Assembly (NCBI GenBank): GCA_016195585.1
Contig: JACPZJ010000178.1
Span: 1 to 26,478 of the forward strand
DNA: 26,478 nt
Origin: Nitrospirota bacterium
GTDB lineage: Bacteria > Nitrospirota > CAKKRA01 > 9FT-COMBO-42-15
Direction: 5' to 3'
Below are positions 36-24,119 of this stretch, piece after piece. Made by a program: the position numbers and the translations under genes. Below the pieces are notes generated by a model that was not told the DNA's origin, made no database searches, and was given only the letters and a program-made list of their open reading frames with translations. The first letter of the stretch is position 1; each line of letters starts with the position of its first letter.

Positions 36-854
36 CTATTTTATATGACAGGTTGTGCACAATGCGCTGGCAGCATTAGACTTTCTTAAGAATGTTGCAT
101 AATCCCTGCCATTTGGCGCAAGCTGGTTGGCAGGCGTGCCAAATTCCGCTGTTGTTCCATGCGGGTTGTGGCAAGATGCGCACTCTACCATGAATACTCC
201 GCCTGTTGGATATAACTTTACCTCATTATCATCTGCCCTGGTGTTAGCGGTCTCCTCAAACCATAAAGCAGTTGAGGAAGAACCACCCGGTATATTAAAT
301 TGTGGGTCAAGTGTTGTTCCGCCATAATTTGCATATCTTATTGATATTGGATGGTCGTCAGAAAGGTTCTGTGTAAGGTTTGTTATCCATCTATTCCCTG
401 CCCCTTCTGGCATTGTGTTGTCAGTAGGAGAGTTTGGGAGACCATTAAATGTCCAGCCCTGGCTTGTTGGTGTGGTGCTAAAATTGCCGGAGCCTGGTGC
501 ATTCCTTATTGCATCTAATGCAATTGTGCCATCATGGCAGGATAGACAAGCTAAAGAAATACCGCCAGGCTGACCTGTTGGTGCATCCATGGTTGTGCTG
601 GTATATGGTGTATAAGTACCTGCTGTTGCCAATGCCCTGTTCCAGAGGGGTGCATCTGTTGTACCACCGTGAGGCGTATGGCAAAATACGCAGACTTCTG
701 AGGTTCCACTGGTATAAACATCTGCATATGGTGTGCTCTCTGCTACCTCAACATGGCTGGAGCTCAGATTGTGCCTGCTCATTGTAATCATTGCATAGGC
801 AGATGATGCATAGAGCATGCTGAAAAGCACTGTTAATAATAAAAACCTTCTCAT
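36..854 (-). CDS. omcE: OmcE-family tetraheme c-type cytochrome (nanowire-type), Sec signal peptide
   Basis: Four CxxCH (CVFCH, CLSCH, CASCH, CTTCH). Motif order matches G. sulfurreducens OmcE as I recall it: RHNLSS..EVCVFCHTPH..PLWNR..ISLACLSCHDG..NLSDDHPI..ECASCHxxH..FLR..SALCxxCH. Start moved from 902 to ATG 854 because AGGAGGAG (861-868) precedes it and a signal peptide follows (MRRFLLLTVLFSMLYASSAYA). The symbol denotes family, not proven orthology. Confidence 0.85.
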   Translation of the reverse strand: MRRFLLLTVLFSMLYASSAYAMITMSRHNLSSSHVEVAESTPYADVYTSGTSEVCVFCHTPHGGTTDAPLWNRALATAGTYTPYTSTTMDAPTGQPGGISLACLSCHDGTIALDAIRNAPGSGNFSTTPTSQGWTFNGLPNSPTDNTMPEGAGNRWITNLTQNLSDDHPISIRYANYGGTTLDPQFNIPGGSSSTALWFEETANTRADDNEVKLYPTGGVFMVECASCHNPHGTTAEFGTPANQLAPNGRDYATFLRKSNAASALCTTCHIK

Positions 855-951
855 AATCTTCTCCTCCTTACTTTCCTTTAAAATTTGTTTTATATTCCCC
901 AATCCTTAAATTAGTCTCTTTCTTCGTATTACAATCTTACTGAATTATACT

Positions 952-967
952 TGCAATTTTTATACCT
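952..967 (-). promoter_or_regulatory. Putative sigma54 (-24/-12) promoter of the tetraheme gene
   Basis: Minus strand AGGTATAAAAATTGCA has GG and GC at the exact sigma54 spacing, with an IHF-like site and two 18-bp motifs upstream. Confidence 0.55.
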
Positions 968-982
968 TGTTACATATATCTC

Positions 983-995
983 TAACTGCTTGTTT
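983..995 (-). promoter_or_regulatory. IHF-like binding site
   Basis: AAACAAGCAGTTA, 1 mismatch to WATCAANNNNTTR, about 48 bp upstream of the inferred sigma54 start. Confidence 0.45.
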
Positions 996-1037
996 TTACT
1001 ACATAAGATTTCCTTTCACCACCTCCCTCTTTATATT

Positions 1038-1055
1038 TGTTACCATTTGGTAGCC
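1038..1055. promoter_or_regulatory. 18-bp palindromic motif, copy 1 (candidate enhancer/operator)
   Basis: TGTTACCATTTGGTAGCC, 15/18 identical to the copy at 4500. Confidence 0.55.
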
Positions 1056-1133
1056 ATATATAGCGCCATTTATATTACTTATCTAATTGAAAATATTAAA
1101 AATTCCTTTTCTCTCGCCATCAAAAACCCCACC

Positions 1134-1151
1134 TGCTACTATTTAGTAGCA
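1134..1151. promoter_or_regulatory. 18-bp palindromic motif, copy 2
   Basis: TGCTACT-ATTT-AGTAGCA has perfect 7-bp arms and is 14/18 identical to copy 1. Confidence 0.5.
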
Positions 1152-1186
1152 AGCTACTTCTCTCCACCTAAAAATCCTTTTCCATT

Positions 1187-1254
1187 CGTCATTCCGTGCT
1201 TGACACGGAATCCATTTTTTTATCTTCTGGATTCCTGCCTTCGCAGAAATGACA
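1187..1254. repeat. CGTC-type REP-like inverted dimer
   Basis: CGTCATTCCGTGCTTGACACGGAATCCA..TGGATTCCTGCCTTCGCAGAAATGACA: two internal hairpins and GTCATT/AATGAC terminal inverted repeats. Confidence 0.75.
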
Positions 1255-1322
1255 TTTTATTTCATTTGTGCGGTGACTTATCAGCATGAATGTTTCATTT
1301 ACCATCTACCCTACCCATACGC

Positions 1323-2381
1323 TCAATTCTTCCCTGCTGCCTTTACCTTTTGTGCATTATATTTTTCACCCATATACTGATATATATTTATCCGCCTGTT
1401 ATACTGGTCTGCCACATATATCTTATCATCCTCGTCTATAAACATCCCTGCAGGAAGCCACAGCTCCCCTGCCTTATTTCCCATATTTGCAAAAAACAGG
1501 AGGATTCTCCCTTCCTGATCAAATATCTGGATATTATTAAAGGCCGCATCAACCACATATATATGGCCTTCGCTGTCTAATGCTATGCCTTTTGGCTTTG
1601 AAAACTGGCCGTATGATGTACCCACCTCGCCAAACTTCTTTATGAACTTCCCGTCTGCATCAAATATCTGCACGCGAAAGTTCATTGTATCCATTATATA
1701 TACCTTATCATCTTTTTTATCAATAAAAATATTGGTCGGATAATTGAACTCGCCATCATTTGTTCCCCTTTTGCCTATTTCAAAGAGCTTATCGCCTTTA
1801 GCATTAAATACAAAAATCTTATTGAGCTTTGTGTCTACCACATAAAGCCTGTCAAGCTTTTCATTTAATGCTATACCAACAGGCTGCTCTAAATCCCCCT
1901 TTTTGCCGATTCCAAGAATGAATTTTGTGTCTTTATCGTATACAACAACCCTGTTCTGCACCGTGTCTGTTACAAATATCCTGCCTGTGCTGTCTGTTGT
2001 TATGCCTGCTGGTTTTGTTAATACCCCGCTTCCCTCGTTTCCAAGTATGACAAACTTGTTTGCAACATAATCAAAGATAAGAACCTTACCTAATCCTGTG
2101 TCTGCTACATATACCCTGCCGTCTTTATCTACATGGATGCCATAAGGTTTTCTTAGACCCTCAATCACATCCGCGCCAAGCACTGCTGTCTTTAGTGTTT
2201 TGCCAATACTTTCCTTCTCTATATCCCTGGAGGTTGAGAGTGTGCCTATATATCTTATTTTTGGTTCATCCGGCGGCAGAGGCCAGACTAATTCTCCCTC
2301 TGTCTTTATTCCAGCACAACCGCTTACGAGCAATAAAGATATTGCTGTTATTAAATTTTTATAAATCCCTCCTTGATACAT
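1323..2381 (-). CDS. NHL-repeat six-bladed beta-propeller lipoprotein
   Basis: Six NHL repeats (KPYGIHVD, KPAGITTD, QPVGIALN, YPTNIFID, KPKGIALD, LPAGMFID), lipobox LVSG-C and N-terminal WPLPPDEPKIRYIG motif. Start is uncertain (see findings); first in-frame ATG given. Confidence 0.9.
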   Translation of the reverse strand: MYQGGIYKNLITAISLLLVSGCAGIKTEGELVWPLPPDEPKIRYIGTLSTSRDIEKESIGKTLKTAVLGADVIEGLRKPYGIHVDKDGRVYVADTGLGKVLIFDYVANKFVILGNEGSGVLTKPAGITTDSTGRIFVTDTVQNRVVVYDKDTKFILGIGKKGDLEQPVGIALNEKLDRLYVVDTKLNKIFVFNAKGDKLFEIGKRGTNDGEFNYPTNIFIDKKDDKVYIMDTMNFRVQIFDADGKFIKKFGEVGTSYGQFSKPKGIALDSEGHIYVVDAAFNNIQIFDQEGRILLFFANMGNKAGELWLPAGMFIDEDDKIYVADQYNRRINIYQYMGEKYNAQKVKAAGKN

Positions 2382-2446
2382 TTTATGAATTATATTATAA
2401 CTAAAACCATCTTGCAACTTAAATCTCAAGACTTACGCATGCCCTT

Positions 2447-3310
2447 TTATTTTATATGGCATGTAGTGCATAATGCGCTGCTGCTATTAGATTTCCTTAA
2501 AAATGTCGGATACAGATTTACACCATCAGATGAAAGCGTTCCGTGCGGATTATGGCACGATGCGCATTGTACTTTATATCCGCTTGCGCCATCGCTATAA
2601 AGTTTTATCTCATTATCATCAGCCCTGTTTGCCATTCCTCCTGTTTCAAACCACGCAACCCTTCCATTGCTGTTTGTTGGTTGATTAAACATTGGATCCT
2701 GTGCAGGTGTTGGATAGTTCATTGAAATAGGGTGCTGGTTGCTTAGGTTCTGAGTAAAAGCTGCAACTTCATATGCAGGCGCAATACCGCTACCTTGAAA
2801 ATGGCAAAGTAGACAACTACCAGTCGCAGATGTTGTCTGCCCTGATTGAGCTAAGCCAAAGTGATTACCTGCTGTATTAGGACCCCAATCAGTAGAGCCA
2901 CCTGGCGTATAGTAGCCTGAGCCTGGCTTATTTATAATAGAGTCTACTGCTATTGTTCCATCATGGCATGATAGACATGCCAATGATATGCCATCTGGCT
3001 GTCCTACGATTGTATCCATTGTAGTGCTTGAATAAGGGGTGTAATTTCCTGTTGCAGGCAATGTCCTGTTCCATAGCGGGGCGTTTGTGGCAGCGCCATG
3101 GGGTGTATGGCAGTACACACAAACTTCACCATAATCATTATACAAAGTGCCTTTTACACCGAGCATTAAGGCATTAGCATATGGCACCATAAGATTGTGC
3201 CGTGTATCCGTAATACCACCTCTATTTGTAACTGGAGCTGATATTGCCTGAGATGCTAATAGACCAATTGATGCGAAGCTTATTGATATTGCAAGTAAAA
3301 ACCTTTTCAT
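2447..3310 (-). CDS. OmcE-like pentaheme c-type cytochrome
   Basis: Five CxxCH (CVYCH, CLSCH, CLLCH, CASCH, CTTCH), the same OmcE scaffold motifs, a signal peptide and SD GGAGG. Confidence 0.9.
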   Translation of the reverse strand: MKRFLLAISISFASIGLLASQAISAPVTNRGGITDTRHNLMVPYANALMLGVKGTLYNDYGEVCVYCHTPHGAATNAPLWNRTLPATGNYTPYSSTTMDTIVGQPDGISLACLSCHDGTIAVDSIINKPGSGYYTPGGSTDWGPNTAGNHFGLAQSGQTTSATGSCLLCHFQGSGIAPAYEVAAFTQNLSNQHPISMNYPTPAQDPMFNQPTNSNGRVAWFETGGMANRADDNEIKLYSDGASGYKVQCASCHNPHGTLSSDGVNLYPTFLRKSNSSSALCTTCHIK

Positions 3311-3468
3311 GTTCTATCCCTCCGTAAGCGATAATTTTTACCTACACATCCCCTACTTTTACTGCTTGTCTATATTATTTTTCTGGCACAACAAATATCA
3401 CATTTTTTTAAGCATGTCAAGTAATAAATTTAATTTATTAATATTGTTATAAAAATTTATTATATGCC

Positions 3469-4260
3469 TTATTTAATATGACAAGTCATGCAAAGTGCGC
3501 TGTCCTTCTTGGATGTCCTTAAAAACGGGTCTCTTCCCTCTAAATTCTGCTCATCAGGGTTGTGCGGGTCATGGCATGAAGCGCACTGAACCTTGCCGCT
3601 AAATAATCTTATTCCATTTGGAAATATGCCTGTCCCTGGCGGTATATTGAACTTCGGGTCCTGGAATACTGTTGGATAGCTCATTGAAACAGGATGGTCA
3701 TCTGATAGATTTTTTGTAAGATACTTAATTGTTGCATCATGCGCGCCATATAATCCTGCAAGCTCGCCTTGAGGGGTATGGCACTTGCCGCAGCTATCAC
3801 CTGATGTCTCAGTGCTCATCCTGTAATGAACGCCTGTATCCACCCATCCTGTATTAGGCGTATTAATAATTGAATCCACAGCAACTGTGCCGTCATGGCA
3901 GGAAAGACATGCAAGGGAAACGCCGTCAGGCGCGCTTGGCATGCTTACATCAATAGTTGTGCTTCTGTACATGCTGTAGCCAGAAGCGCTTGGTAGTGCG
4001 TGATTCCATAGTGGAGCTACATCACTTGAGCCATGAGGTGTATGGCAGTACACGCATACCTCGCCGTAATCATTATAAGTTACGCCATTCATTGCGCCAA
4101 CACCGCCCTTTGCAATTGCCCTCTGGCTAAGATACGATAAATCATGCTTGGAACGAAGGATTGTGCCGCTTTGTCCTGGTATTGCCTTGAAGATCAGGTA
4201 TATTGCTAAGAATAAGAGGATGTAGAATATTATATTCTCAATGAAGCTTAGGTACTTCAT
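3469..4260 (-). CDS. OmcE-like pentaheme c-type cytochrome with hydrophobic N-terminal signal/anchor
   Basis: Five CxxCH (CVYCH, CLSCH, CGKCH, CASCH, CMTCH) plus KHDLS and NLSDDHP. ATG 4260 follows GGAGAGG; ATG 4290 is the alternative start. Confidence 0.88.
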   Translation of the reverse strand: MKYLSFIENIIFYILLFLAIYLIFKAIPGQSGTILRSKHDLSYLSQRAIAKGGVGAMNGVTYNDYGEVCVYCHTPHGSSDVAPLWNHALPSASGYSMYRSTTIDVSMPSAPDGVSLACLSCHDGTVAVDSIINTPNTGWVDTGVHYRMSTETSGDSCGKCHTPQGELAGLYGAHDATIKYLTKNLSDDHPVSMSYPTVFQDPKFNIPPGTGIFPNGIRLFSGKVQCASCHDPHNPDEQNLEGRDPFLRTSKKDSALCMTCHIK

Positions 4261-4299
4261 TACGAGATACCTCTCCCCCCTGTAATTCATAACACAGTT

Positions 4300-4327
4300 A
4301 TTATAGTATTTATTTCTGCCATGTCAA
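4300..4327 (-). promoter_or_regulatory. sigma70-type promoter
   Basis: TTGACA-16nt-TATAAT, both hexamers perfect consensus. Confidence 0.7.
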
Positions 4328-4355
4328 GGATGAAAAATCTTTAATAATTATTAAT

Positions 4356-4371
4356 AGCAAATACTATGCCA
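4356..4371 (-). promoter_or_regulatory. sigma54 promoter of the OmcE-like cluster
   Basis: TGGCATAGTATTTGCT closely matches TGGCAC-N5-TTGCW. Confidence 0.75.
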
Positions 4372-4422
4372 TTGCAAATAAGAAATATTATAAAAACCAT
4401 TTTTACCTTGAATAGATTAAAA

Positions 4423-4435
4423 AATCAATGAGTTA
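4423..4435 (+). promoter_or_regulatory. IHF binding site
   Basis: AATCAATGAGTTA is a perfect WATCAANNNNTTR match in AT-rich DNA. Confidence 0.55.
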
Positions 4436-4499
4436 TATCTCTTTAAATAGTCATAATAGTGTTACCTTCAAAGAATCTTCTAATTTATAGACACAGAAT

Positions 4500-4517
4500 T
4501 GTAACCATCTGGTAGCA
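4500..4517. promoter_or_regulatory. 18-bp palindromic motif, copy 3
   Basis: TGTAACCATCTGGTAGCA, 17/18 identical to the copy at 8424. Confidence 0.65.
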
Positions 4518-4782: not shown

Positions 4783-4864
4783 TGTCATTCTCGCATGTTT
4801 TAGCGGGAATCCAGTTCTTGTAAATTCAATAAGTTCTTGATTCCGCATCAAGTGCGGAATGACA
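4783..4864. repeat. CGTC-type REP-like inverted dimer
   Basis: TGTCATTCTCGCATGTTTTAGCGGGAATCCA..GATTCCGCATCAAGTGCGGAATGACA has the same architecture as 1187-1254. Confidence 0.75.
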
Positions 4865-4905
4865 ATAATAAAACAGCAACATAATAACACAAGGAGGGAC
4901 GCATT

Positions 4906-6069
4906 ATGAAAAGCAAAGGATTGTTAGGGATGTTGTTTTCTTTTTTTGTTGCGGTAACCATTATTTTTGCACCAGCAGCACATGCAATTGTATTAAGCGG
5001 CATTCCATACGCTTGGGGACAAGGCAGCTATGGTCAGATCGGTGATGGAACGTCATTCAACAGGTACACACCTGTTCAAGTTAGTGGACTAACAGGAGTA
5101 ATAGCTATTAAAGGGGGAGGGTTTCACACAGTTGCCCTAAAGAATGACGGTAATGTCTGGACATGGGGAGCAAATTGGTGGGGACAGCTTGGTGATGGAA
5201 CAACGACCGATAGATATACCCCTGTTCAGGTTAGTGGGCTAACAGGTATAATAGCCATTGCAGGGGGAGGTGAACATACCATTGTCTTAAAGAATGATGG
5301 TACGATCTGGGGATGGGGACGAAATCAGTTTGGCGAGCTCGGCGATGGAACAACAACCAATAGAGCCACCCCTGTTCAGGTTAGTGGACTAACAGGTATA
5401 ATAGCCATTGCAGGGGGATATTGGCATACCATCGCCCTTAGAAATGATGGTACAGTTTGGGTATGGGGACGGAATCAGTTTGGCGAAATTGGTGATGGAA
5501 CTTTCAATAATATTAGGCCTACCCCTGTTCAGGTTAGTGGGCTAACAGGTGTGGTAGCCATTGCAGGGGGAGGCGTACATACCATTGTCCTTAAAAATGA
5601 CGGCACAGTCTGGGCATGGGGGAATAATGAGTTTGGCCAACTTGGTAATGGAACAATATCATATTATAACCCAACTCCTGTTCAGGTCAGTGGGCTTGTA
5701 GGCGTAACTGCTATTGCTGGTGGTGAAGGTTATCATACAATTGCCTTAAGAAATGATGGAACAGTTTGGGCTTGGGGTAAAAATGACTATGGTCAGCTTG
5801 GTGATGGAACAACGACCCATAGAAATATCCCTATCCATGTCAGTGGACTTACAAGCATAGAAGCTATTGCTGGTGGGGGAAATCATACTATTGCTTTAAA
5901 GAATGACGGAACTGTCTGGGCATGGGGACAGAATAATGACTGGGGCCAGCTTGGAGACGGAACAGTGGTCAATAGATATACTCCTGTTCAGGTTAGCGGG
6001 CTTACAGGAGTAGTAGCTATTGACGCTGGTTTTTATCATACTCTCGCTATTAAACACCCGTGCCCTTAG
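4906..6069 (+). CDS. Secreted RCC1/BLIP-II-like seven-bladed beta-propeller
   Basis: Seven 50-52 aa repeats (WxWGxNxxGQLGDG..[17 protein letters not shown].HT..LKNDG), signal peptide ending AAHA, SD AAGGAGG. Confidence 0.93.
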
Positions 6070-6297: not shown

Positions 6298-7437
6298 ATG
6301 AAAAGAAATCTGGTAATTGTTCTTATTGCCATTGGTGTGGCTGCAGGTATCGGCATCGGGCTGTATGTTGGTAAAGAAGGAGAAAAGGTCTCTAAGGGGG
6401 CAATAAAGGACGTTCAGCAGTTTGGTGTCGGGCCGACAAGAAATGTAAAGGCGCTTTTGGCAGAAGACCCTGTCCTATATGTTGGGACATCGCAGGGCAT
6501 TGTAAGATACAATACGCAGGATGGACAGCATATGGTGTTTGATAATAAAAACTCAGGGCTCGTCAGCAACGGGATTTTTTATCTAACAAAGATTGATAAC
6601 AAGCTGTGGGTTGGCACATACGGCGGCGGCCTGTCTATCTTTGATGGCGAAAAATGGAAAACCTATAACATTCCTCAGGGACTGGCTGATGCCTTTGTGT
6701 ACGGCGCTGCCAAGGCGCCTAATGGCGATATCTGGATTGCCACATGGTCGGGCGCAAATCAGATTATTGGCGGTAAACTTGACGATCCAAAGGCATGGAA
6801 AACATATACGGTAAAGAATACTAATGGCGGCCTTCCCAATGACTGGGTTTATAGTGTTATTGTTGATCCCAAAGGAAATGTCTGGTTTGGCACAGAAGGC
6901 GGCCTTGCCTTTTATGACGGCTCTAAATGGAAGAATTGGAATCATAAAGACGGATTAGGCGCCCCTTATGAAAAGGTGAAGGACACACTGACAAAGGATA
7001 CAGACCCCGCCACACTTTCCAAACACCACGCAAGACAAAAGGTAGAAATGGGGCTGGAGAAGATGCAGGCGCCTTATAATCCCAACTATATTGTCTCCAT
7101 GCTGCTGGATTCAAAGGGACGGATCTGGTGCGGCACATGGGGAGGCGGACTCTCTGTTTTTGAAAATGGCAAATTTAAAACATATACCACAAGCGAGGGT
7201 TTAATTGGAAACTATGTCCCGATGCTTAAAGAAGGGCCTGACGGAGCTATCTGGATAGGCCAGAATAAAGGCCTTTCCAAATTAAAAGAAGGGATGTTTG
7301 GGAGCAAGTTTATTAATTACACGAAAGAAGGCGGCCTTTACGGCGATATTGTTTTCTCAATGGCTTTTATGCAAAATGGTTCAGTTTGGGTAGGAAGCTT
7401 TGGCGGCGCAAGCAATTTCACTAAAGGAATAAAGTAG
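6298..7437 (+). CDS. Stand-alone Reg_prop-type (two-component regulator propeller) beta-propeller with N-terminal membrane anchor
   Basis: Repeated DxxGxxWxGTxGG(L) units (KLWVGTYGGGL, NGDIWIATWSG, KGNVWFGTEGGL, KGRIWCGTWGGGL), hydrophobic N-terminus, no kinase domain. Confidence 0.8.
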   Translation: MKRNLVIVLIAIGVAAGIGIGLYVGKEGEKVSKGAIKDVQQFGVGPTRNVKALLAEDPVLYVGTSQGIVRYNTQDGQHMVFDNKNSGLVSNGIFYLTKIDNKLWVGTYGGGLSIFDGEKWKTYNIPQGLADAFVYGAAKAPNGDIWIATWSGANQIIGGKLDDPKAWKTYTVKNTNGGLPNDWVYSVIVDPKGNVWFGTEGGLAFYDGSKWKNWNHKDGLGAPYEKVKDTLTKDTDPATLSKHHARQKVEMGLEKMQAPYNPNYIVSMLLDSKGRIWCGTWGGGLSVFENGKFKTYTTSEGLIGNYVPMLKEGPDGAIWIGQNKGLSKLKEGMFGSKFINYTKEGGLYGDIVFSMAFMQNGSVWVGSFGGASNFTKGIK

Positions 7438-7439
7438 CT

Positions 7440-7466
7440 GTAAGGGCGAACGGTTGTTCGCCCTGC
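7440..7466. repeat. Degenerate GTAG-type REP between convergent genes
   Basis: GTAAGGGCGAAC-GGTT-GTTCGCCCTGC hairpin. Confidence 0.65.
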
Positions 7467-7467
7467 T

Positions 7468-17232: not shown

Positions 17233-19008
17233 TCATTGCTGAAATGGGGAAGGTAAAATAGGTGGCCTTTTGGATTTGCTTACAACCCTCTGCACTTCCA
17301 CCTGTGTTGTAAGGATTGATGGTGAAACAACAGAGACAGTCACCTCTCCTGATTCTGCCCCGCAAGTGCCATTAAAAACAGTTGCGTCATCGCCTGTGGC
17401 AATAACCTTTTCAAGGCTTACCAGCGGTGTGCCAACCAGCTCAACACCTCGCACAAGTTTTTCCTCTCCTGTTTTAACATCTATCGCATACACAAGAATA
17501 GGGGTTGCCTTAAATGCCTGAAAGTTTCCTCCCCTCTCACCGCGGGAGGCCTGAGTATTTGTCTCGCCTGCCCTTATACGCCTTATAATAAGCCCATAAG
17601 GCTTTCCCTGTTTTTTTGCCTCTTCTATAAGCATGGTCTTGAGTTTTTGCCATTGAAACTTTTTTTCGGAATCTACTATAAGATTAGCCATCCTTCCCAC
17701 TGCATGCCCAAAGGATGTTAATGTCCACGGGCCCTGGCTGCGGCCATGTCCATTAGATTGATTAAATCCATTAATGGGGGTTCTTGATAGCAGATAATTT
17801 TTAAGGATACCCCTTTCTACCAAAACAACCTTTTGAGCAGCAACACCTTCATCATCATATGCATAATATCCTGTCAGGGTTCTGCCATTAAGGCGATCCA
17901 TTGTTGGATCATCAATAATACTTAAAAACTCTGGTAAAATTCCTTCGTTAACCTTCCCTTTAAATGTTTGCCCTGACTCCGGCATCCTCTGGCGCTCGCC
18001 TTCAAGCCTGTGGCCAAGGGCCTCATGAAAGAATACCCCTGCCACATCCGGGCCAAGGATCGCAGGACCTGTATAGGGCTTGAATTCCTCTGCCTCACGG
18101 AGCTTTGTAAGTTCATCTGCAAGGGATTCTGCCTCTGCTATAAAATTCTTGGTGTCCTGAAGCTCTTTTGGGTCACGCACAAAAAAGTACCTGAAGCTGT
18201 CCACCTTAGCCCCGTCTACAGCCCTTGTCCATGCATGGATATCAACTGTATAAAAAACCTCTGATGTGCGGAGTATTGCTCCTTCAGTATTTACATAATA
18301 ATTAACTATAATATCAGCCCTCACTTCCATATACGGCTCCATTATCTCCTTTTTTGAGGCAAGGTGACTTGTAACCTTACGAACTATATCCTTCCACATC
18401 TCTTGATCAAAAGATATCTCCTTTATTGGACCCACAAAGACAATGGGGGCATGTCTTGAAAAATCATCCGGTTTTTGTTCTTTATCATTATCAACAGAGG
18501 TAGCCTGCAACACCTTCTTTTTCTGATAATCCCCTACTGCACCCTTGTATGCTGTATCGCTCATAAGCCATAGTGTTGCCCTTAATGAAGCCCCGTCACC
18601 TTCTATAGGAACCTGCGAAAGGTTCCAATCGCCTTCCCCGAGCATGTCTTCAATGCTCTCAGGGCTAAAGCGTGTGCTAAAAGGAAGGTTTGTATTGTCC
18701 AGTTTATAGTCGCCTACACGGACCTGAACGCCGGCGGTTCTATAGGGATGAAAATCGGGATGGATATGGGTAATTGCCCCATATTTCCCGGATACAGAGG
18801 CAGTTGCCCTCTCCTGTATCCAGAAACTTATAAAGTATGGCGTAGGCTGCTCAGGAAGTTTCAGACCCTCTTTTGCCCTCTTGATCTCAATCTGCATTGC
18901 CTTTAAAAGCGGATCATTTTCAGGTTTTAGCTGCTTATCTCCGCCTATACCTTCTGCAGGGATAAGAATAAAAAATATCCATAACAATATTACATAAATT
19001 ATCTTCAT
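17233..19008 (-). CDS. TldD-family metalloprotease with signal peptide
   Basis: GVFFHEALGHRLEG zinc motif, YDDEGV, SNGHGR, GRMANL and GTCGAESG; SD GAGGAG; hydrophobic N-terminus. Confidence 0.88.
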   Translation of the reverse strand: MKIIYVILLWIFFILIPAEGIGGDKQLKPENDPLLKAMQIEIKRAKEGLKLPEQPTPYFISFWIQERATASVSGKYGAITHIHPDFHPYRTAGVQVRVGDYKLDNTNLPFSTRFSPESIEDMLGEGDWNLSQVPIEGDGASLRATLWLMSDTAYKGAVGDYQKKKVLQATSVDNDKEQKPDDFSRHAPIVFVGPIKEISFDQEMWKDIVRKVTSHLASKKEIMEPYMEVRADIIVNYYVNTEGAILRTSEVFYTVDIHAWTRAVDGAKVDSFRYFFVRDPKELQDTKNFIAEAESLADELTKLREAEEFKPYTGPAILGPDVAGVFFHEALGHRLEGERQRMPESGQTFKGKVNEGILPEFLSIIDDPTMDRLNGRTLTGYYAYDDEGVAAQKVVLVERGILKNYLLSRTPINGFNQSNGHGRSQGPWTLTSFGHAVGRMANLIVDSEKKFQWQKLKTMLIEEAKKQGKPYGLIIRRIRAGETNTQASRGERGGNFQAFKATPILVYAIDVKTGEEKLVRGVELVGTPLVSLEKVIATGDDATVFNGTCGAESGEVTVSVVSPSILTTQVEVQRVVSKSKRPPILPSPFQQ

Positions 19009-19141
19009 ATTCTCTCCTCATTACTGTCTGTCAGAACTTTAAGCCAAGTTATCTGGAATACCCCAATTATATGGAGTTTTTCCATTCAAGTGGTTTTCCT
19101 GCCCAGTAATATACAGAACATATCTAATGTTAATTTTAGCA

Positions 19142-19181
19142 GAAAAAAGAAAAAAGGCAATGGAGGGGTTAAACTTCCATT
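19142..19181 (-). terminator. Possible intrinsic terminator of the moxR operon
   Basis: Minus strand AATGGAAG-TTTAACC-CCTCCATT followed by GCC and a U-rich run. Confidence 0.35.
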
Positions 19182-19221
19182 CTCTTTATCGTCCCATGCC
19201 ACCTAAAACTTAAGCCTTTGC

Positions 19222-21450
19222 CTATCTCTTCTTTTTGGGCGGGGCCTCTGCGAGTTTTAATATTGCTTCATAAGCCCTGTATGCCTCTACTGCCTCTTTC
19301 CTGCTTATGGGAACAGGACTGTACTTTGCCTGCTGGAATAAGAGGGTGATCTTGTCTATCTGATTAAAAAGGGTTTTAAATCTTGGCTTGAGGAGTTCCT
19401 TATATTCAGAAGGTGAATAATGGGCTGGCCTCGGCAGGCCATTTTTTGCAAAGACCCGCTCCATTTCCATATAGCAGCAAAATATAAATTCCTTTGGATC
19501 AGAATCCTTTATCCTCTGCATCCTCCACATTTTGATGTGCGGAGACATGATGTGGTATATCCAATAACTAATCAGAGATAATAATACCAGAAAAACAAAT
19601 ACCTTCCAGCCTTCTTCTGCAAACCAATACCACATATTTATTATTGCCTCTTTTATCGCCTCAATAAATTTATAAATGATGGCCAGCGCCTCCTTAAGAA
19701 ATGTAAGGATATTGCTTTGCTCAGGGGATATCTGAATAGCAGCCTCTATATACTTCTCAACATACTGAAAAATATCTATAAGCGCAAAGTATCTGCGATT
19801 ATCCTCTGGCAGAACAAACCCCGGCGTTGGCTCAAAGGATATCCATTCACCATCAATATATGCCTCAACCCAAGCATGGGCATCCAGCCCTCTAACCTCA
19901 AAGTAACCTGTAATCGGATTATATTGAGTGGCATTATATCCAGTAACAAGCCTTGATGGAATCCCTGATGACCTCAGCATAACAGACATGGAAGAGGCAA
20001 AAAGCTCGCAATGCCCCTCCTTCAGATTAAAAAGAAACTCCTCCACAGGATTCCCCTGCCATTCCCTGAATATGGTATCTAAGGTATATTGATAATTTAA
20101 CTTAAGATGTTGTTCAATAGCCTTTGCCTTCTGATAGTCGCCATGAATGCCTTCTGTGATTGAATAACTTAATTCCTTGATCCTCCCAGAAAGATCAAAT
20201 GGAAGCTGGCGGTATCTGTATACTTCATTCAAATACTCTTTGCCGCCGGAGGTATGGTCATCTTCTATTTCCTTCATTTCAGAGGTGATAGAATATATAG
20301 TCCCTTTCTTGAGATTCTGGGGAGCCCTGAGAGCGGAATTAACATCCCTTTCAATCACATTACCCGGAAACCATAAGGCGGCCGGCTTATATGCAGAAAA
20401 GATAATACTTGATATGTCCTTTTTAATTATATATGTCTGGGATATCCCTCTTTCCTGATAATCCTTTTTAAGGATAAACCTCCCCTTCGGAGAATAGAGC
20501 TTTTCTTTTTCAATGTCTGTCTCCACCCAATAGCGTCCGTCAAAAATGTCAAAGGCCTTCCCCCTTGTATAAATGGGCCGATCTGACTGCAGATAGAATA
20601 CGATCTCATTAGAAAGGAAAAAACTGCCCGGGGCGGCAATATCAAATCTTTTCTGGAAACCTTCATAATCTGCCTTATCATCATAGAGATAAATGCCACC
20701 TCTTTCTTCTCCCCTATCCCTTCTGGTTATCCCCGCAGGCCCCCGCTCTTTGCCCCTAACTGCGCCGCCCCTTGCCTCTTTCTCCCATTCTTCATTATTA
20801 TAAAACCAGCCCCCTCCGGATTGAAAGGCCTGAATCTTTGGTGATGGAAATCTTGGTACAATAAGATAGACAATGATAGAAAGGATAATTGTAACAACAG
20901 CTATTCCAACCCCTTTTACAGGCAGATTCATTCTTTTTACTAACATCTCTTTATCCCCGCCTTTTGCGTGAATCAGCCTTTCATCTATATGATCTGCCAT
21001 AAATGCAAACATGCCTGCAAAGACATAAAAAACAAGATAGAGTATAAAGGAGGTCTCTTTACTTATGCTTGAGGCATAAAGAATAAGTACAAGAGATACA
21101 AAGTAGGCAAAATATAGTTCCCTCCTGTTTGTAAGTGTAAAGTTTCTGCCTGCCTGCATAAATATAAGGAAGTTGAGGAATCCCTTTTCAGGGCCGGAGG
21201 AGAGAAAGCCGCCTATTAAAACAAGGAGTGATATTCCCATGAAGGCGGCGCTCGCTATTTTTATTATTATTCTTTTTTTCTTTCTATAATACCATCCGCA
21301 AATAAGCCCGATGCCATACAGGGTCGGCCAGAATATAATGTTAAAGGTAAAGAAAAATGCGGTTGCATTACTATTAGCCACTGAGAGGACGGCAACCACC
21401 AGAAGGAGATATGCGCCTATGTAAACAGCAGGATATTGTATCTGATTCAT
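19222..21450 (-). CDS. TgpA-like membrane transglutaminase-family protein (DUF3488 + transglutaminase core + DUF4129-like)
   Basis: Multiple N-terminal TM helices, GHCELFAS (Cys), AHAWVE (His), FEPTP, then a TM and a cytoplasmic tail. Confidence 0.9.
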   Translation of the reverse strand: MNQIQYPAVYIGAYLLLVVAVLSVANSNATAFFFTFNIIFWPTLYGIGLICGWYYRKKKRIIIKIASAAFMGISLLVLIGGFLSSGPEKGFLNFLIFMQAGRNFTLTNRRELYFAYFVSLVLILYASSISKETSFILYLVFYVFAGMFAFMADHIDERLIHAKGGDKEMLVKRMNLPVKGVGIAVVTIILSIIVYLIVPRFPSPKIQAFQSGGGWFYNNEEWEKEARGGAVRGKERGPAGITRRDRGEERGGIYLYDDKADYEGFQKRFDIAAPGSFFLSNEIVFYLQSDRPIYTRGKAFDIFDGRYWVETDIEKEKLYSPKGRFILKKDYQERGISQTYIIKKDISSIIFSAYKPAALWFPGNVIERDVNSALRAPQNLKKGTIYSITSEMKEIEDDHTSGGKEYLNEVYRYRQLPFDLSGRIKELSYSITEGIHGDYQKAKAIEQHLKLNYQYTLDTIFREWQGNPVEEFLFNLKEGHCELFASSMSVMLRSSGIPSRLVTGYNATQYNPITGYFEVRGLDAHAWVEAYIDGEWISFEPTPGFVLPEDNRRYFALIDIFQYVEKYIEAAIQISPEQSNILTFLKEALAIIYKFIEAIKEAIINMWYWFAEEGWKVFVFLVLLSLISYWIYHIMSPHIKMWRMQRIKDSDPKEFIFCCYMEMERVFAKNGLPRPAHYSPSEYKELLKPRFKTLFNQIDKITLLFQQAKYSPVPISRKEAVEAYRAYEAILKLAEAPPKKKR

Positions 21451-22682
21451 ATTCTAAAAATCTCCTGAAGATTATCACCCTTTGATACAAAATAGACCGG
21501 TATCCCTTCACCGATAAGTTCGTCAATAAGAGGATTTTGCCTCTCCATTGATTTCGCTTTATTATCCAAAAAGCTTTCCCTGTTCAGGAATATACATACA
21601 GGTCTCATCCTCTTTGCCTTTAACAGGCCGATGCTGTAAAGATATTTATCAGGCTCTCCACTTAGTTGAGAGAATATAAGAACCACTGCCCCGCCATCCC
21701 TTAAAAGCTCAGACGACTGATAGATGGCATCAGGATAAGCAATTCCTCCCTCTGCCTTCACCCTTGCGAGGGTCTCAAGCACTGCTGCCAGATGATTAAT
21801 CCCCCTTGAGGATGAAACAATATGCGGCCTTTCACCATAGCCTATAAGCTGAAAGCTGTGGCCCCTTTCCAAAACATATCTTGCAATTGAGGCAGCAATC
21901 TTTACTGCATATTCCAGTGTGGTCTCCTTTCCTGTCCCGATATCAGATTTTTTATGAAGGTCAATAATCAATGTCGCCTCTGTGGAGCTTCTTATCTCAA
22001 ATTCCTTTACAATCAGCTCGGAGTGCCTTGCAGTAGACAGCCAGTGGATGTGCCTCAGGCTGTCACCCTGCCTGTATTCCCTTGTCCCAAAAAACTCATC
22101 GCTCCCGCCGGCTATCATTACAGACTCCACGCCAACCATCGGAGTATTACTTGCCGCAATAAGCGGGAATCTCTCTATATCAAAAACCTGCGGATAGACC
22201 AGAAGGGTCTGAATCCCCTCTGGCAGGGGTTTTTCAATAGAGGATATGCCAAGCGGATATGAAGACCTGACAGTAAGCGGGCCGACGGTGTATTCACCGC
22301 GCTTATAACAGCTAAGCTTAAATGAGTATTTTCTGTTTTGTCTTTTAGGCAGCCTTGCAATAAATGTCATCGGGCTCCGGGAATCAGGCTCAGCAGCAGG
22401 AATGGAATCTACAACCTCAATCATATAGCGGCTCATCCAGCCCTTGTTTTGAACACAGACCTCTACATCCACCTCATCATCCTCAAAGGCTGTAGATGGA
22501 ATGCTTCGTGTTGCCAGAACATCTCTAAGGGAATATCTCGGCAGGATATGCGCAATTATAAGGGTTGCGGTCAGGAGCGCAAACATGACATAAAGGAGAT
22601 TGGCAGCCCTGTTCCATGCAATCAGAAAAAAGAGAATGACCAAAATGATGAGAACCGTCTGCTTGGTAAAAAATCTTTTCAT
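21447..22682 (-). CDS. DUF58 domain protein
   Basis: EFFGTREYRQGDSLRHIHWLSTAR..LIVKEFE and two N-terminal TMs. Confidence 0.9.
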   Translation of the reverse strand: MKRFFTKQTVLIILVILFFLIAWNRAANLLYVMFALLTATLIIAHILPRYSLRDVLATRSIPSTAFEDDEVDVEVCVQNKGWMSRYMIEVVDSIPAAEPDSRSPMTFIARLPKRQNRKYSFKLSCYKRGEYTVGPLTVRSSYPLGISSIEKPLPEGIQTLLVYPQVFDIERFPLIAASNTPMVGVESVMIAGGSDEFFGTREYRQGDSLRHIHWLSTARHSELIVKEFEIRSSTEATLIIDLHKKSDIGTGKETTLEYAVKIAASIARYVLERGHSFQLIGYGERPHIVSSSRGINHLAAVLETLARVKAEGGIAYPDAIYQSSELLRDGGAVVLIFSQLSGEPDKYLYSIGLLKAKRMRPVCIFLNRESFLDNKAKSMERQNPLIDELIGEGIPVYFVSKGDNLQEIFRI

Positions 22683-22683
22683 A

Positions 22684-23625
22684 TTATTTTTTTACAGGGG
22701 CAGGGATACTATTTAATATATCATCAAGGACAGTATCTTCATTTATGCCCCTTAATCTTGACTGGGGTTTCATTATGATACGATGGGCAAGCACGGGTTT
22801 TGTAACTAATTTAACAAAAGAGGGCTCAACATAATTTATGCCCTTTAAAAGGGCCATTGCCTGTGATGCCCTCATCAGGCAGAGCGACCCCCTCGGGCTT
22901 GCGCCGAGGAGGAGTTCGGGATGTTTACGTGTTGCATCTATGATCTTAACAATATACTGCATTATGGATTTATCAATATAAACCTGAGATACGGCATCCT
23001 GCATCGTCCCCAATGCATCCTCTGAAATAACAGGGGAGACCGAATGGATGGGGTGGTCTTTTATCTGCATCTCCATTACCCTGACCTCCTGATCATTAGA
23101 CGGGTATCCAATCTTGATTCGCATAAAAAAACGATCAAGCTGCGCCTCGGGTAAATGATATGTGCCTTGCAACTCAATTGGGTTCTGGGTAGCAATCACC
23201 ATAAACACCTTTGGCAGCAGATATGTTGTCCCATCAGCAGTAATCTGATGCTCTTCCATGGATTCAAGCAGGCTTGACTGCGTCCTTGGGGTAGTCCTGT
23301 TTATCTCATCAGCAAGAAGGATATTGGTAAATACAGGGCCTGGTCTAAATTCAAATTCGCTATTTTTCTGATTAAATATAGAGACCCCTGTGACATCAGA
23401 TGGGAGAAGGTCAGGCGTAAACTGGATCCTCTTAAAGCGAAGGGACATGGAGTTTGCCATAGACCTTGCAAGCATTGTCTTGCCGAGCCCCGGCACATCC
23501 TCTATCAGCAAATGCCCTCTACAGAGAAGGGTTATTATTGCCAGATCTATAACAGGCCTCTTGCCAACAATTACCTTCTCAATATTATTTGTAAGGATAA
23601 GCAGATTGTCCTGAAAATTGGCCAT
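22684..23625 (-). CDS. moxR: MoxR-family AAA+ ATPase
   Basis: EDVPGLGKT (Walker A), RIQFTPDLLPSD, LLADEINR (Walker B) and LPEAQLDRF. Confidence 0.95.
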   Translation of the reverse strand: MANFQDNLLILTNNIEKVIVGKRPVIDLAIITLLCRGHLLIEDVPGLGKTMLARSMANSMSLRFKRIQFTPDLLPSDVTGVSIFNQKNSEFEFRPGPVFTNILLADEINRTTPRTQSSLLESMEEHQITADGTTYLLPKVFMVIATQNPIELQGTYHLPEAQLDRFFMRIKIGYPSNDQEVRVMEMQIKDHPIHSVSPVISEDALGTMQDAVSQVYIDKSIMQYIVKIIDATRKHPELLLGASPRGSLCLMRASQAMALLKGINYVEPSFVKLVTKPVLAHRIIMKPQSRLRGINEDTVLDDILNSIPAPVKK

Positions 23626-23643
23626 AGGGTGTCCTGTAAACTA

Positions 23644-23672
23644 ATTCTAACAACCAATCACATCCTTGTCAA
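23644..23672 (-). promoter_or_regulatory. sigma70-type promoter of the moxR operon
   Basis: TTGACA-17nt-TAGAAT. Confidence 0.65.
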
Positions 23673-23701
23673 GATAACTAAGACGTCATCTATAATACTT
23701 A

Positions 23702-23730
23702 TTGACTGCTAAGATATTTTTGATTATTCT
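23702..23730 (+). promoter_or_regulatory. sigma70-type promoter of the DUF488-resB operon
   Basis: TTGACT-17nt-TATTCT. Confidence 0.55.
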
Positions 23731-23759
23731 AATGGTGCAGTTGCGACAATTGGGGGGTA

Positions 23760-24119
23760 ATGGTAATTCATATAAAAAGGGCCTATAACCCGCCGGCAAG
23801 AGAGGATGGTTTTCGGATACTGGTAGACCGCTTGTGGCCGCGCGGCATTGCTAAAGATACTGCAAAGATAGGCCTATGGCTTAAAGAGATAGCCCCAAGC
23901 AATGAACTGCGAAGGTGGTTTAACCATGACCTTAAAAAATGGGAGGGATTCAAAACGCGCTATTTTAAAGAGCTTGATAAGCTCTCCGATGCTGTGGGGC
24001 AATTAGTAAGTCTGGCAAAAGGAGGCACAATAACCCTTGTCTTTGGGGCAAGGGATGAGAATATGAATAACGCTGCTGCCCTGAAAAAATATCTTGAAAA
24101 GGGGTATTATAAGAAATAA
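23760..24119 (+). CDS. DUF488 family protein (YeaO-like)
   Basis: IKRAY..DGFRILVDRLWPRG..WLKEIAPSNELRRWFNHD. Confidence 0.92.
   Translation: MVIHIKRAYNPPAREDGFRILVDRLWPRGIAKDTAKIGLWLKEIAPSNELRRWFNHDLKKWEGFKTRYFKELDKLSDAVGQLVSLAKGGTITLVFGARDENMNNAAALKKYLEKGYYKK

Follow-up and report, generated by a model that had tools for sequence, protein, structure and literature searches.

In this study, a window of 26,478 nt (the whole of the DNA analysed: contig JACPZJ010000178.1 of assembly GCA_016195585.1, forward strand) was examined, and we consider it probable that it represents the promoter-proximal half of an OmcE/Uet/Occ-type extracellular electron-transfer cluster of a groundwater Nitrospirota, in which a secreted tetrahaem cytochrome would polymerise into filaments. 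The organism is a metagenome-assembled genome (MAG), and its nearest relatives are likewise groundwater Nitrospirota MAGs, in agreement with the preliminary description, which had judged from the DNA that it was unlikely to be a Geobacter. The cluster type, Nitrospirota homologues of OmcE and OmcE-like proteins with five haems are already published, so that the present locus is a real, modest variant; what is less usual is the occurrence of one tetrahaem and two anciently diverged pentahaem paralogs in a single cluster, which was seen only in this clade. The features concerned are as follows.

36 to 854, minus strand: paralog A, tetrahaem OmcE/UetA-type cytochrome, 272 aa, intact ORF
944 to 1154, minus strand: spacer between the NHL gene and A, with hairpin, palindrome and promoter
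1323 to 2429, minus strand: NHL1, NHL-repeat six-bladed beta-propeller lipoprotein, between B and A
2447 to 3310, minus strand: paralog B, pentahaem OmcE-like cytochrome, 287 aa, intact ORF
3469 to 4260, minus strand: paralog C, pentahaem OmcE-like cytochrome, 263 aa, intact ORF
4300 to 4516, minus strand: control region upstream of C, with sigma-70, sigma-54-like and palindrome elements
6298 to 10692, mixed strands: conserved flank of the island, its order matching that of relative L021
6298 to 7437, plus strand: Reg_prop propeller protein
7468 to 8375, minus strand: two monohaem class-I cytochromes c
8555 to 10692, plus strand: four cytochrome c7 trihaem genes

With reference to the three cytochromes, we observed that OmcE of G. 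sulfurreducens (7TFS) and its counterpart of D. soudanensis (9YUQ) were the only significant PDB matches for A, B and C, with single-sequence E values of 1e-16 to 1e-20, which bears out the earlier reading of three same-strand OmcE-type paralogs. The four distal-His contexts that had been noticed in all three also hold: SRHNL, CHTPH, DDHP and CHNPH in A, TRHNL, CHTPH, NQHP and CHNPH in B, and SKHDL, CHTPH, DDHP and CHDPH in C align at the same positions of 7TFS and 9YUQ, and they are invariant in 27 tetrahaem and 93 pentahaem relatives. Like OmcE, the proteins keep four CxxCH motifs and four distal His in unchanged order, carry a predicted Sec signal and are mostly coil; they differ in that identity is low (single-sequence E reaches only 1e-19 or 1e-20). 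Judged by these features, the three are bis-His multihaem cytochromes of the OmcE family that are predicted to be Sec-exported. Foldseek searches with AF2 monomer models, which were built with no haem and had mean pLDDT values of 56 and 41, found nothing (best E 9.7). Two other families were tried and rejected, namely the NrfH/CymA quinol dehydrogenases (TIGR03153, 18-28 bits against a cut-off of 134) and the MtrC/OmcA decahaem surface cytochromes (PF22113, 21.7-26 bits against a cut-off of 30, over short stretches around CxxCH).

Paralog A has its longest ORF at 36-902 with a TTG start at 902, and its likely start is the ATG at 854 behind AAGGAGG, followed by a Sec signal ending SSAYA|MITMSRH. 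Its four CxxCH (C55, C103, C225, C266) are accompanied by the distal His H28, H62, H168 and H232 and by one additional, non-conserved His, and all eight core His are invariant in the tetrahaem set of 27 relatives. The A-clade profile matched 7TFS over its full length (E 5.7e-39), from the arm with the N-terminal His to the C-terminal haem. This profile also matched loci of Gallionella, Thiobacillus and Noviherbaspirillum that have the uet gene order. A itself did not group within the main UetA-type tetrahaem clade. A holds the UetA/OmcE position, directly 3' of the NHL lipoprotein gene, with chaperone and barrel genes next in the relatives.

The OmcE scaffold claimed for all three genes in the preliminary description is right as regards the four-haem core, and it left unstated that B and C are pentahaem proteins. 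Each of the two has five CxxCH, and the added CxxCH with its own His is invariant in the 93 relatives, as are all ten core His. In B the fifth haem site comprises H150 and C166-x-x-C169-H170, within an insert that separates haem 2 from the QHP His (about nt 2753-2914); in C it comprises H145 and C157-G-K-C160-H161 (about nt 3721-3846). The pentahaem profile accordingly matched OmcE (E 5.7e-33) in two pieces on either side of the insert. B and C thus retain the entire four-haem OmcE core plus one bis-His haem in a variable loop, and because they keep the eight His positions together with a fifth CxxCH and distal His, they are regarded as variants and not as canonical OmcE members. The signal peptides of A and B are of the standard kind and have AxA-type sites (AISA|PV in B). 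C, whose longest ORF is 3469-4290 with a likely ATG start at 4260, in accordance with the end coordinate given in the preliminary description, has an atypical N-terminal hydrophobic segment, IIFYILLFLAIYLIFKAIPG, which makes its cleavage site uncertain; the segment is kept in its orthologues, and the more distant L012 orthologue has an ordinary signal peptide. C is the orthologue of the pentahaem gene found 5' of the NHL gene in other Nitrospirota. The three genes diverged long ago; pairwise identities are 54% (A-B) and 46% (A-C), and the paths between the paralogs measure about 1.5 substitutions per site.

The NHL lipoprotein gene that had been described between B and A is confirmed by NHL repeats (E 9e-31) and by a lipobox, LLLVSGC|AG, conserved in orthologues, which also place the likely start at ATG 2381. 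A conserved motif, VWPLPPDEPK, follows the lipid anchor, and in Noviherbaspirillum the lipoprotein encoded upstream of a UetA-type gene shares 42% identity with the protein (6e-86). In our survey of 80 species-level loci with 91 OmcE-like genes, a same-strand NHL gene lies no more than 700 bp away in 58 of the 91, so that the OmcE and NHL pairing, for which a synteny search had been proposed, is a recurrent one. The statement that omcE neighbours such a gene is likewise supported, as beta-propeller lipoprotein genes are included in the omcE clusters of Desulfuromonadia (PMC13712944). The conserved adjacency of the genes is consistent with a role of NHL1 as anchor or assembly platform.

Regulatory elements were found both in the NHL-to-A spacer and upstream of C. 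The former contains a terminator-like hairpin (1154-1131), the palindrome GCTACCAAATGGTAAC (1054-1039), of which degenerate copies occur in the corresponding spacer of L004, L006 and L023, and a sigma-70-like promoter, GTAACA-18-TATAAT (973-944). The latter contains a perfect sigma-70 consensus, TTGACA-16-TATAAT (4327-4300), a sigma-54-like TGGCAT-N5-TTGCT (4371-4356) and the palindrome GCTACCAGATGGTTAC (4516-4501), none of which varies when four genomes are aligned. The conserved flank holds the palindrome a third time, at 8425-8440, making three occurrences against 0.03 expected. From these predicted elements, A, B and C appear to be separately promoted, and the putative promoters of A and C have a palindromic candidate operator in common.

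The end of the contig cuts the cluster directly after A; the preliminary description missed that the array is the leading part, cut short, of a type of cluster already known in the literature as omcE, uet and occ. Between 89 and 97% of the window's words are present in each of four independent groundwater runs, and the A-to-NHL join, though spanned by a 31-nt high-copy hairpin repeat, is supported by the identical gene order in four relatives. Where the cluster continues in relatives, orthologues are 66-94% identical and the order C-B-NHL1-A is kept. In close relatives A is followed on its 3' side by a Wzy_C/TPR gene, a SurA-like PPIase and a probable barrel protein of 612 aa (with signal peptide, C-terminal TRVF and porin-like Atlas features), and then by a second NHL gene, two undecahaem genes and a sigma-54 response regulator; L023 carries the PPIase, barrel, NHL2 and undecahaem genes. 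The predicted barrel has 607-620 aa in L006, L011, L012 and L023, with signal peptide, terminal Phe and porin-like Atlas features, and reads as two ORFs (288 and 278 aa) in L004. NHL2 of the relatives has a plain signal peptide and is no lipoprotein, and their undecahaem proteins of 870 and 888 aa each contain 11 CxxCH and one CxxxCH. A search of the assembly to which the window belongs (79% complete) brought up no gene for a barrel, a PPIase or an undecahaem, and that this organism has the full cluster is therefore inferred from the relatives.

Comparison with known systems places the locus among three published cluster types. The minimal omcE cluster, to which the gene set of the relatives corresponds, consists of OmcE, a large barrel, a pair of multihaem cytochromes and a pair of propeller lipoproteins, and Nitrospirota homologues of OmcE were already listed by Petersen et al. 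(mBio 2026; PMC13712944), who also proposed the OmcE-like proteins with five CxxCH as a possible new nanowire family (PMC13712944). The present cluster is alike in its adjoining beta-propeller lipoprotein gene and, in relatives, in its probable large barrel and two big multihaem cytochromes, whereas it has three family members, one tetrahaem and two pentahaem, and the relatives place the SurA-like PPIase and Wzy_C/TPR genes between subunit and barrel. The uet cluster, uetABCDEFGHIJ-ccsAB-nrfG-bat, is known from Ca. Tenderia electrophaga and some Gallionella (bioRxiv 10.1101/2022.05.06.490989; PMC10734462). The window contains tetrahaem, NHL, four c7 and ResB genes, with the cytochrome-maturation (ResB), TPR and MoxR/DUF58 genes nearby, and together with L023 it matches the uet parts list of tetrahaem, PPIase, large barrel, c7 trihaems, two NHL proteins, undecahaem and Ccs genes, a likeness judged by this list and by the loci with uet order and not by alignment to Tenderia proteins. 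Unlike uet, the c7 genes here lie on the opposite side and opposite strand, no cupredoxin gene was seen, and there are two undecahaems instead of one, plus the pentahaem paralogs. Among the papers searched, none names UetA and OmcE together. The occ cluster of Ca. Dechloromonas occultata, occA-S with the undecahaem OccP, occurs widely among subsurface bacteria, and its proteins were detected during Mn(III) reduction (bioRxiv 10.1101/695007); by description it is likewise cytochrome-rich and includes six-bladed NHL proteins as well as an undecahaem of about 900 aa that is extracellular, but has a 19-gene betaproteobacterial layout. Again, the secondary cytochrome cluster of Ca. Tenderia electrophaga combines a pentahaem, an NHL protein and trihaems, and this pentahaem-plus-NHL module recurs across the surveyed loci; there it stands apart from the tetrahaem cluster, whereas here two pentahaems are fused into the cluster. 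The common order in the survey is NHL-E4-PPIase-barrel-c7-NHL-NHL-undecahaem, tetrahaem and pentahaem genes occur together in 11 loci, and the shared parts list was found in Nitrospirota, Pseudomonadota, Nitrospinota, Acidobacteriota, Gemmatimonadota and other phyla.

In the mechanism that we favour, electrons would pass from periplasmic c7 trihaems to the large undecahaems and the barrel, encoded downstream in relatives, while A would be secreted and polymerise head-to-tail by analogy with the solved OmcE filaments, its N-terminal His being assumed to complete the terminal haem of the neighbouring subunit. The lipid-anchored NHL propeller would serve the cytochrome encoded beside it as a dedicated partner in the outer membrane, and B and C may be alternative or accessory surface cytochromes. 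AlphaFold3 models of five-haem proteins suggest a more exposed fifth haem (PMC13712944), as is probably the case here as well. Either uptake or disposal of electrons would be possible. It is unlikely, on the other hand, that A, B and C stay monomeric, at the surface or in the periplasm, and dock on the barrel and undecahaem complex as parts of a conduit, with no filament. The Uet and Occ papers do read the gene set as a porin-cytochrome complex with extracellular tetrahaem and undecahaem, the N-terminus of C is anchor-like and possibly uncleaved, and a His acting in trans cannot be separated by sequence from one folding back to its own haem. Nonetheless, cryo-EM showed filaments for each of the two OmcE-family members to which it was applied, similar bundles are seen in a third species (PMC13712944), and the tetrahaem profile extends over OmcE from the His arm to the last haem.

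A mixed or modular wire, with A as insulated shaft and small numbers of B and/or C built in at the tip, the base or branches, where their exposed fifth haem would contact minerals or partner cells, is regarded as quite improbable. The presumed donor His and acceptor haem are kept in A, B and C, the three genes share a single co-regulated locus, and a nanowire tip protein was asked for and none found in Desulfuromonadia operons (PMC13712944). However, in 20 of the 80 loci no tetrahaem gene lies within 10 kb of the paired pentahaem and NHL genes, which argues against an obligate mixed filament, and the paralogs are just 46-54% identical at the distances given above, so that shared interfaces are not evident; for the heteropolymer that the preliminary description had thought possible, nothing was found in support. 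That C should be a membrane-anchored, quinol-oxidising cytochrome of the NrfH/CymA kind instead of a secreted subunit is very improbable indeed: it has, as do its orthologues, a long hydrophobic N-terminus that lacks a clean AxA site, and there are weak NrfH matches, but these stay below the cut-off, the whole C domain aligns with OmcE, and the L012 orthologue is ordinary in its signal peptide.

By itself the window is a modest gain, being a further incomplete example from an uncultured organism. Structures of cytochrome nanowires come from only a handful of organisms, and the questions that they raise are how they start, end, branch and transfer electrons to solids. If the mixed filament were true, B and C would be the tip or anchor proteins that were sought in vain in the 2026 OmcE paper (PMC13712944). 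An OmcE-type four-haem protein beside five-haem derivatives, whose added haems are probably exposed, provides a natural test between separate, leaky wires and specialised subunits of one wire. Moreover, the omcE, uet and occ clusters have a common parts list around an OmcE-family cytochrome and an NHL lipoprotein, which is useful in annotating groundwater metal cycling.

With reference to the array at 36-4290 of the window, four uninterrupted open reading frames were observed, all intact and on the minus strand, which confirms the three same-strand OmcE-type paralogs (A, B and C) and the NHL-repeat lipoprotein gene (NHL1) reported in the preliminary description. These genes and the other features of the window discussed here are as follows.

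36-902, minus strand: paralog A; likeliest start ATG 854, eight bases behind AAGGAGG
1323-2429, minus strand: NHL1, between B and A; NHL repeats (E 9e-31), lipobox LLLVSGC followed by A
2447-3310, minus strand: paralog B; preceded by a GGAGGG site
3469-4290, minus strand: paralog C; likeliest start ATG 4260
4906-6069: secreted RCC1 protein with seven repeats, divergent from C
6298-7437: secreted Reg_prop 'two-component regulator propeller', 379 aa, a conserved neighbour of such clusters in Nitrospirota
17233-25177: genes for PmbA/TldD-like, TgpA-type transglutaminase, DUF58, MoxR AAA+ ATPase, DUF488 and ResB (cytochrome c maturation) proteins
1039-1054, 4501-4516 and 8425-8440: 16-bp palindrome GCTACCAnATGGTwAC, lying before A, before C and RCC1, and between the divergent monohaem c and c7 genes, respectively
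1184-1214 and about 4835-4865: hairpin repeat ATTCCGYRCTTGAYRCGGAAT

The public gene call for the contig agrees on 272 aa for paralog A (P0050), and the upstream ATG of C lies only ten bases from position 4300, the end of a perfect TTGACA-16-TATAAT. The window is one entire contig, with a GC content of about 42%, of a 1.7-Mb MAG that is 79% complete, and 35 bases separate the end of paralog A from the contig end.

Among all PDB sequences, the only significant matches of each of A, B and C were the OmcE filament of G. sulfurreducens (7TFS; E 3e-19, 8e-19 and 1e-20 for the three paralogs) and the OmcE bundle of D. soudanensis (9YUQ; E 1e-15 to 1e-17), the latter described by Petersen et al., mBio 2026 (PMC13712944). 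The blocks superposed in these alignments are the N-terminal K/RHxL, CVxCHTPH, PLWN, CLSCHDG, DHP, CxSCHxxH and the C-terminal LCxxCHxK. Paralog A carries four CxxCH motifs, and B and C carry five each. A tetrahaem profile (A and 26 relatives) matched OmcE end to end at 5.7e-39, and a pentahaem profile (B, C and 91 relatives) matched it at 5.7e-33 in two pieces, flanking about 60 positions which stand in for OmcE residues 124-139. Invariant histidines number eight in the tetrahaem alignment of 27 rows and ten in the pentahaem alignment of 93 rows, the latter being the five of the CxxCH motifs together with H38, H71, H150, H193 and H256 (B numbering), and the fifth haem site C166/C169/H170 is likewise invariant. 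It can thus be observed that B and C retain the core of OmcE in full, with a further bis-His haem placed in the variable loop. Five-CxxCH proteins of this kind have already been noticed, and on the basis of AlphaFold3 models they were suggested to have a more solvent-exposed extra haem and to form 'an uncharacterized nanowire family' (PMC13712944). Our own AF2 models, with a mean pLDDT of 56 for B (93-row alignment) and 41 for A (27 rows), are too low in confidence to inform on the fold, and their Foldseek matches against the PDB were only noise at E 9.7, which does not count against an OmcE fold. Readings of the paralogs as NrfH or as MtrC were rejected, with scores under the respective family cut-offs. 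The earlier interpretation as a whole stands in part, its OmcE homology included.

The three paralogs are old, with identities of 54% between A and B and 46% between A and C. A carefully built 58-row tree joins C, at support 97/95, to the pentahaem gene located ahead of the NHL gene in other Nitrospirota. On the other side, A, B, a clade of proteobacterial pentahaems and the main tetrahaem clade fall into a polytomy, and the well-supported branches require the haem number to have changed at least twice. A quick tree placed A next to B and suggested, without support, that A is a copy of B which recently lost a haem; constraining A to join the tetrahaem clade of Nitrospirota gave a tree better by 11.8 log-likelihood units (p-AU 0.69), so we make no claim that A is a pentahaem gene minus one haem. 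Recent gene conversion among the three was also rejected, as nucleotide identity in 20-codon windows runs at about 20-75%, and the longest exact words common to them are 11-17 nt. Separately, at 3847-3916, inside C around its CLSCHDG haem-2 motif, a variant carried by three of the four groundwater runs differs by 17 substitutions over 70 nt, the same contigs having only isolated substitutions elsewhere; this is a strain-level mosaic patch whose source is not A or B of the same genome.

Groundwater Nitrospirota MAGs, whose orthologues are 66-94% identical, proved to be the closest relatives, in line with the earlier expectation that the organism is unlikely to be a Geobacter. The gene order in these relatives is C, B, NHL1, A, a Wzy_C and TPR protein, a SurA-like PPIase, a 612-aa protein, a second NHL protein (NHL2) and large multihaem cytochromes. 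On the 312-kb contig of one relative there next come two proteins (870 and 888 aa) that each carry 11 CxxCH and one CxxxCH, and then a 318-aa protein, another propeller, a sigma-54-dependent response regulator and Fur. On the other flank, the Reg_prop propeller, two monohaem cytochromes c, four c7 trihaems, TonB_C and a long TPR protein are common to the window and the relative. By comparison with these relatives, the window array makes up the leading part of a bigger cluster of known type. The genes downstream of A in the relatives, the putative barrel among them, were not found in the window's own assembly (79% complete), where the search returned only a 25%-identical Wzy_C relative and TPR-repeat matches, and contigs from the source runs (Logan) extend 300-470 bp beyond the left end of the window. 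The 612-aa protein has a signal peptide, no Pfam match and a C-terminal end ...TRVF, and its likeness to porin families (0.92-0.93 by language-model features) is a lead only. The RCC1 gene is not conserved, an Xre/RES toxin-antitoxin pair occupying the same spot in the relative L021. Two further features lie at the following loci.

L006:4512-6362, L004:13260-14816 and L023:5162-7012 (relatives, at a position just outside the left end of the window): membrane protein of Wzy_C type (O-antigen-ligase/PglL-like), TPR repeats at its C-terminus, encoded immediately after the tetrahaem gene
Window 1323-2429, L006:9294-10370 (relative) and L081:8477-9610: NHL genes with a proline-rich or proline-containing motif just after the anchor or signal

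OmcE of G. sulfurreducens shows glycan-like densities, and for this reason we propose that the Wzy_C/TPR protein could glycosylate the secreted cytochrome. The lipobox of NHL1 is kept in orthologues as LLIISGC, LLLISGC and ILVAGC, and just past the signal or lipid anchor both NHL proteins share the proline-rich motif (ELVWPLPPDEPK, EIVWPPPPEDAK), with a weaker proline-containing counterpart, VFPAAPDQPR, in the Noviherbaspirillum NHL protein; a role of this motif in docking is possible.

Scanning GTDB representatives with a profile yielded at least 579 loci, of which the best 80, from species-level genomes, were kept and annotated by BLAST against proteins of the cluster. Among these best 80, a same-strand NHL gene lay within 700 bp of 38 of the 56 tetrahaem and 20 of the 35 pentahaem genes, and 11 of the genes lacking such a neighbour sit at locus ends. 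Both tetrahaem and pentahaem genes occurred at 11 of the 80 loci and pentahaem genes only at 20; the layout of one tetrahaem and two pentahaem genes occurred at none of them, and was encountered in the window and the genomes nearly related to it alone. The Wzy_C/TPR gene was matched by BLAST at a single one of the 80 (L080), on the opposite strand. The common order in Pseudomonadota within this set was NHL, tetrahaem, PPIase, a large protein with no Pfam match, c7 genes, NHL, NHL and undecahaem, as checked by Pfam in Noviherbaspirillum sp. ST 5-3, where the lipoprotein upstream of the tetrahaem gene is 42% identical to NHL1 (6e-86). No BLAST similarity was detected between the putative Nitrospirota barrel and the Noviherbaspirillum protein in the UetC position (E 0.11), and the two are equivalent only in cluster position. 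Reg_prop genes, often doubled, are also present in several gammaproteobacterial loci (L039, L046, L055, L069, L074 and L092), and Reg_prop is a third propeller class tied to the system. Two loci from MAGs labelled Thermoplasmata archaeon (L067) and Chitinophaga pinensis (L051) carry bacterial-type OmcE/NHL/undecahaem clusters, and the tetrahaem of the supposed archaeon has a Nitrospinota sequence as its sister (support 100/100). The loci may reflect mis-binning or a transfer of recent date, and these labels should be checked before use. Again, three loci (L088, L095 and L050) encode far larger proteins with 18-24 CxxCH that nonetheless match the OmcE-like family best and look like fused or repeated OmcE-type modules.

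Each of A, B and C has a promoter-like site of its own, and a terminator-like hairpin lies 3' of the NHL gene. Upstream of C we found a perfect sigma-70 consensus, a sigma-54-type TGGCAT-N5-TTGCT and the palindrome GCTACCAGATGGTTAC, all invariant in four genomes. Taken alone, the sigma-54 pattern shows no enrichment across the window (4 matches, 3.2 expected); the palindrome occurs at 3 sites against 0.03 expected, degenerate copies lie upstream of A in relatives, and it is a likely operator of one regulon. Together with the sigma-54 activator ending the relatives' cluster, this pattern points to one regulon in which the cytochrome genes are separately adjustable. The hairpin repeat looks like a REP/MITE-like element: its 31-mer at 1184-1214, through which the contig's A-to-NHL1 join passes, has a word depth of about 25 times its flanks in the source runs and breaks assembly graphs there.

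The system belongs to a known type, described in the literature under the names omcE, uet and occ. The minimal omcE cluster consists of OmcE, two multihaem cytochromes, two propeller lipoproteins and a large barrel, and OmcE homologues were reported in five phyla, Nitrospirota among them (PMC13712944). The uet cluster of Ca. Tenderia electrophaga, present in some Gallionella too, comprises tetrahaem UetA, PPIase UetB, the 28-strand barrel UetC, c7 trihaems UetDEG, NHL proteins UetHI and undecahaem UetJ, then ccsAB, a TPR gene and bat genes (bioRxiv 10.1101/2022.05.06.490989; PMC10734462), and occ of Ca. Dechloromonas occultata has ten cytochromes, six-bladed NHL proteins and undecahaem OccP (bioRxiv 10.1101/695007). 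Taken together, the window and its relatives fit all three parts lists, and the MoxR/DUF58 and ResB genes of the window recall the bat and ccs genes after the published uet cluster. In Tenderia and Gallionella, related clusters function in the uptake of electrons, and in Geobacter and Dechloromonas they function in metal reduction. The window's own assembly (79% complete) holds one haem-copper oxidase and no dsrA above cut-off, which is thin evidence on the direction of electron flow. Among the papers searched, none names UetA and OmcE together. Distinctive here are the three-paralog make-up, one tetrahaem with two anciently diverged pentahaems, and, in the relatives, the Wzy_C/TPR gene immediately after the tetrahaem gene.

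In summary, A, B and C are probably exported OmcE-family cytochromes with full bis-His ligand sets and a conserved lipoprotein partner, set within a conserved electron-transfer island. By analogy with the two solved OmcE wires, A would be the secreted filament-forming subunit, its N-terminal histidine presumably donated to the neighbouring subunit, as read from their head-to-tail geometry. B and C may act as alternative or accessory surface cytochromes whose extra haem is probably exposed, and the NHL lipoprotein would serve the adjacent cytochrome at the outer membrane.
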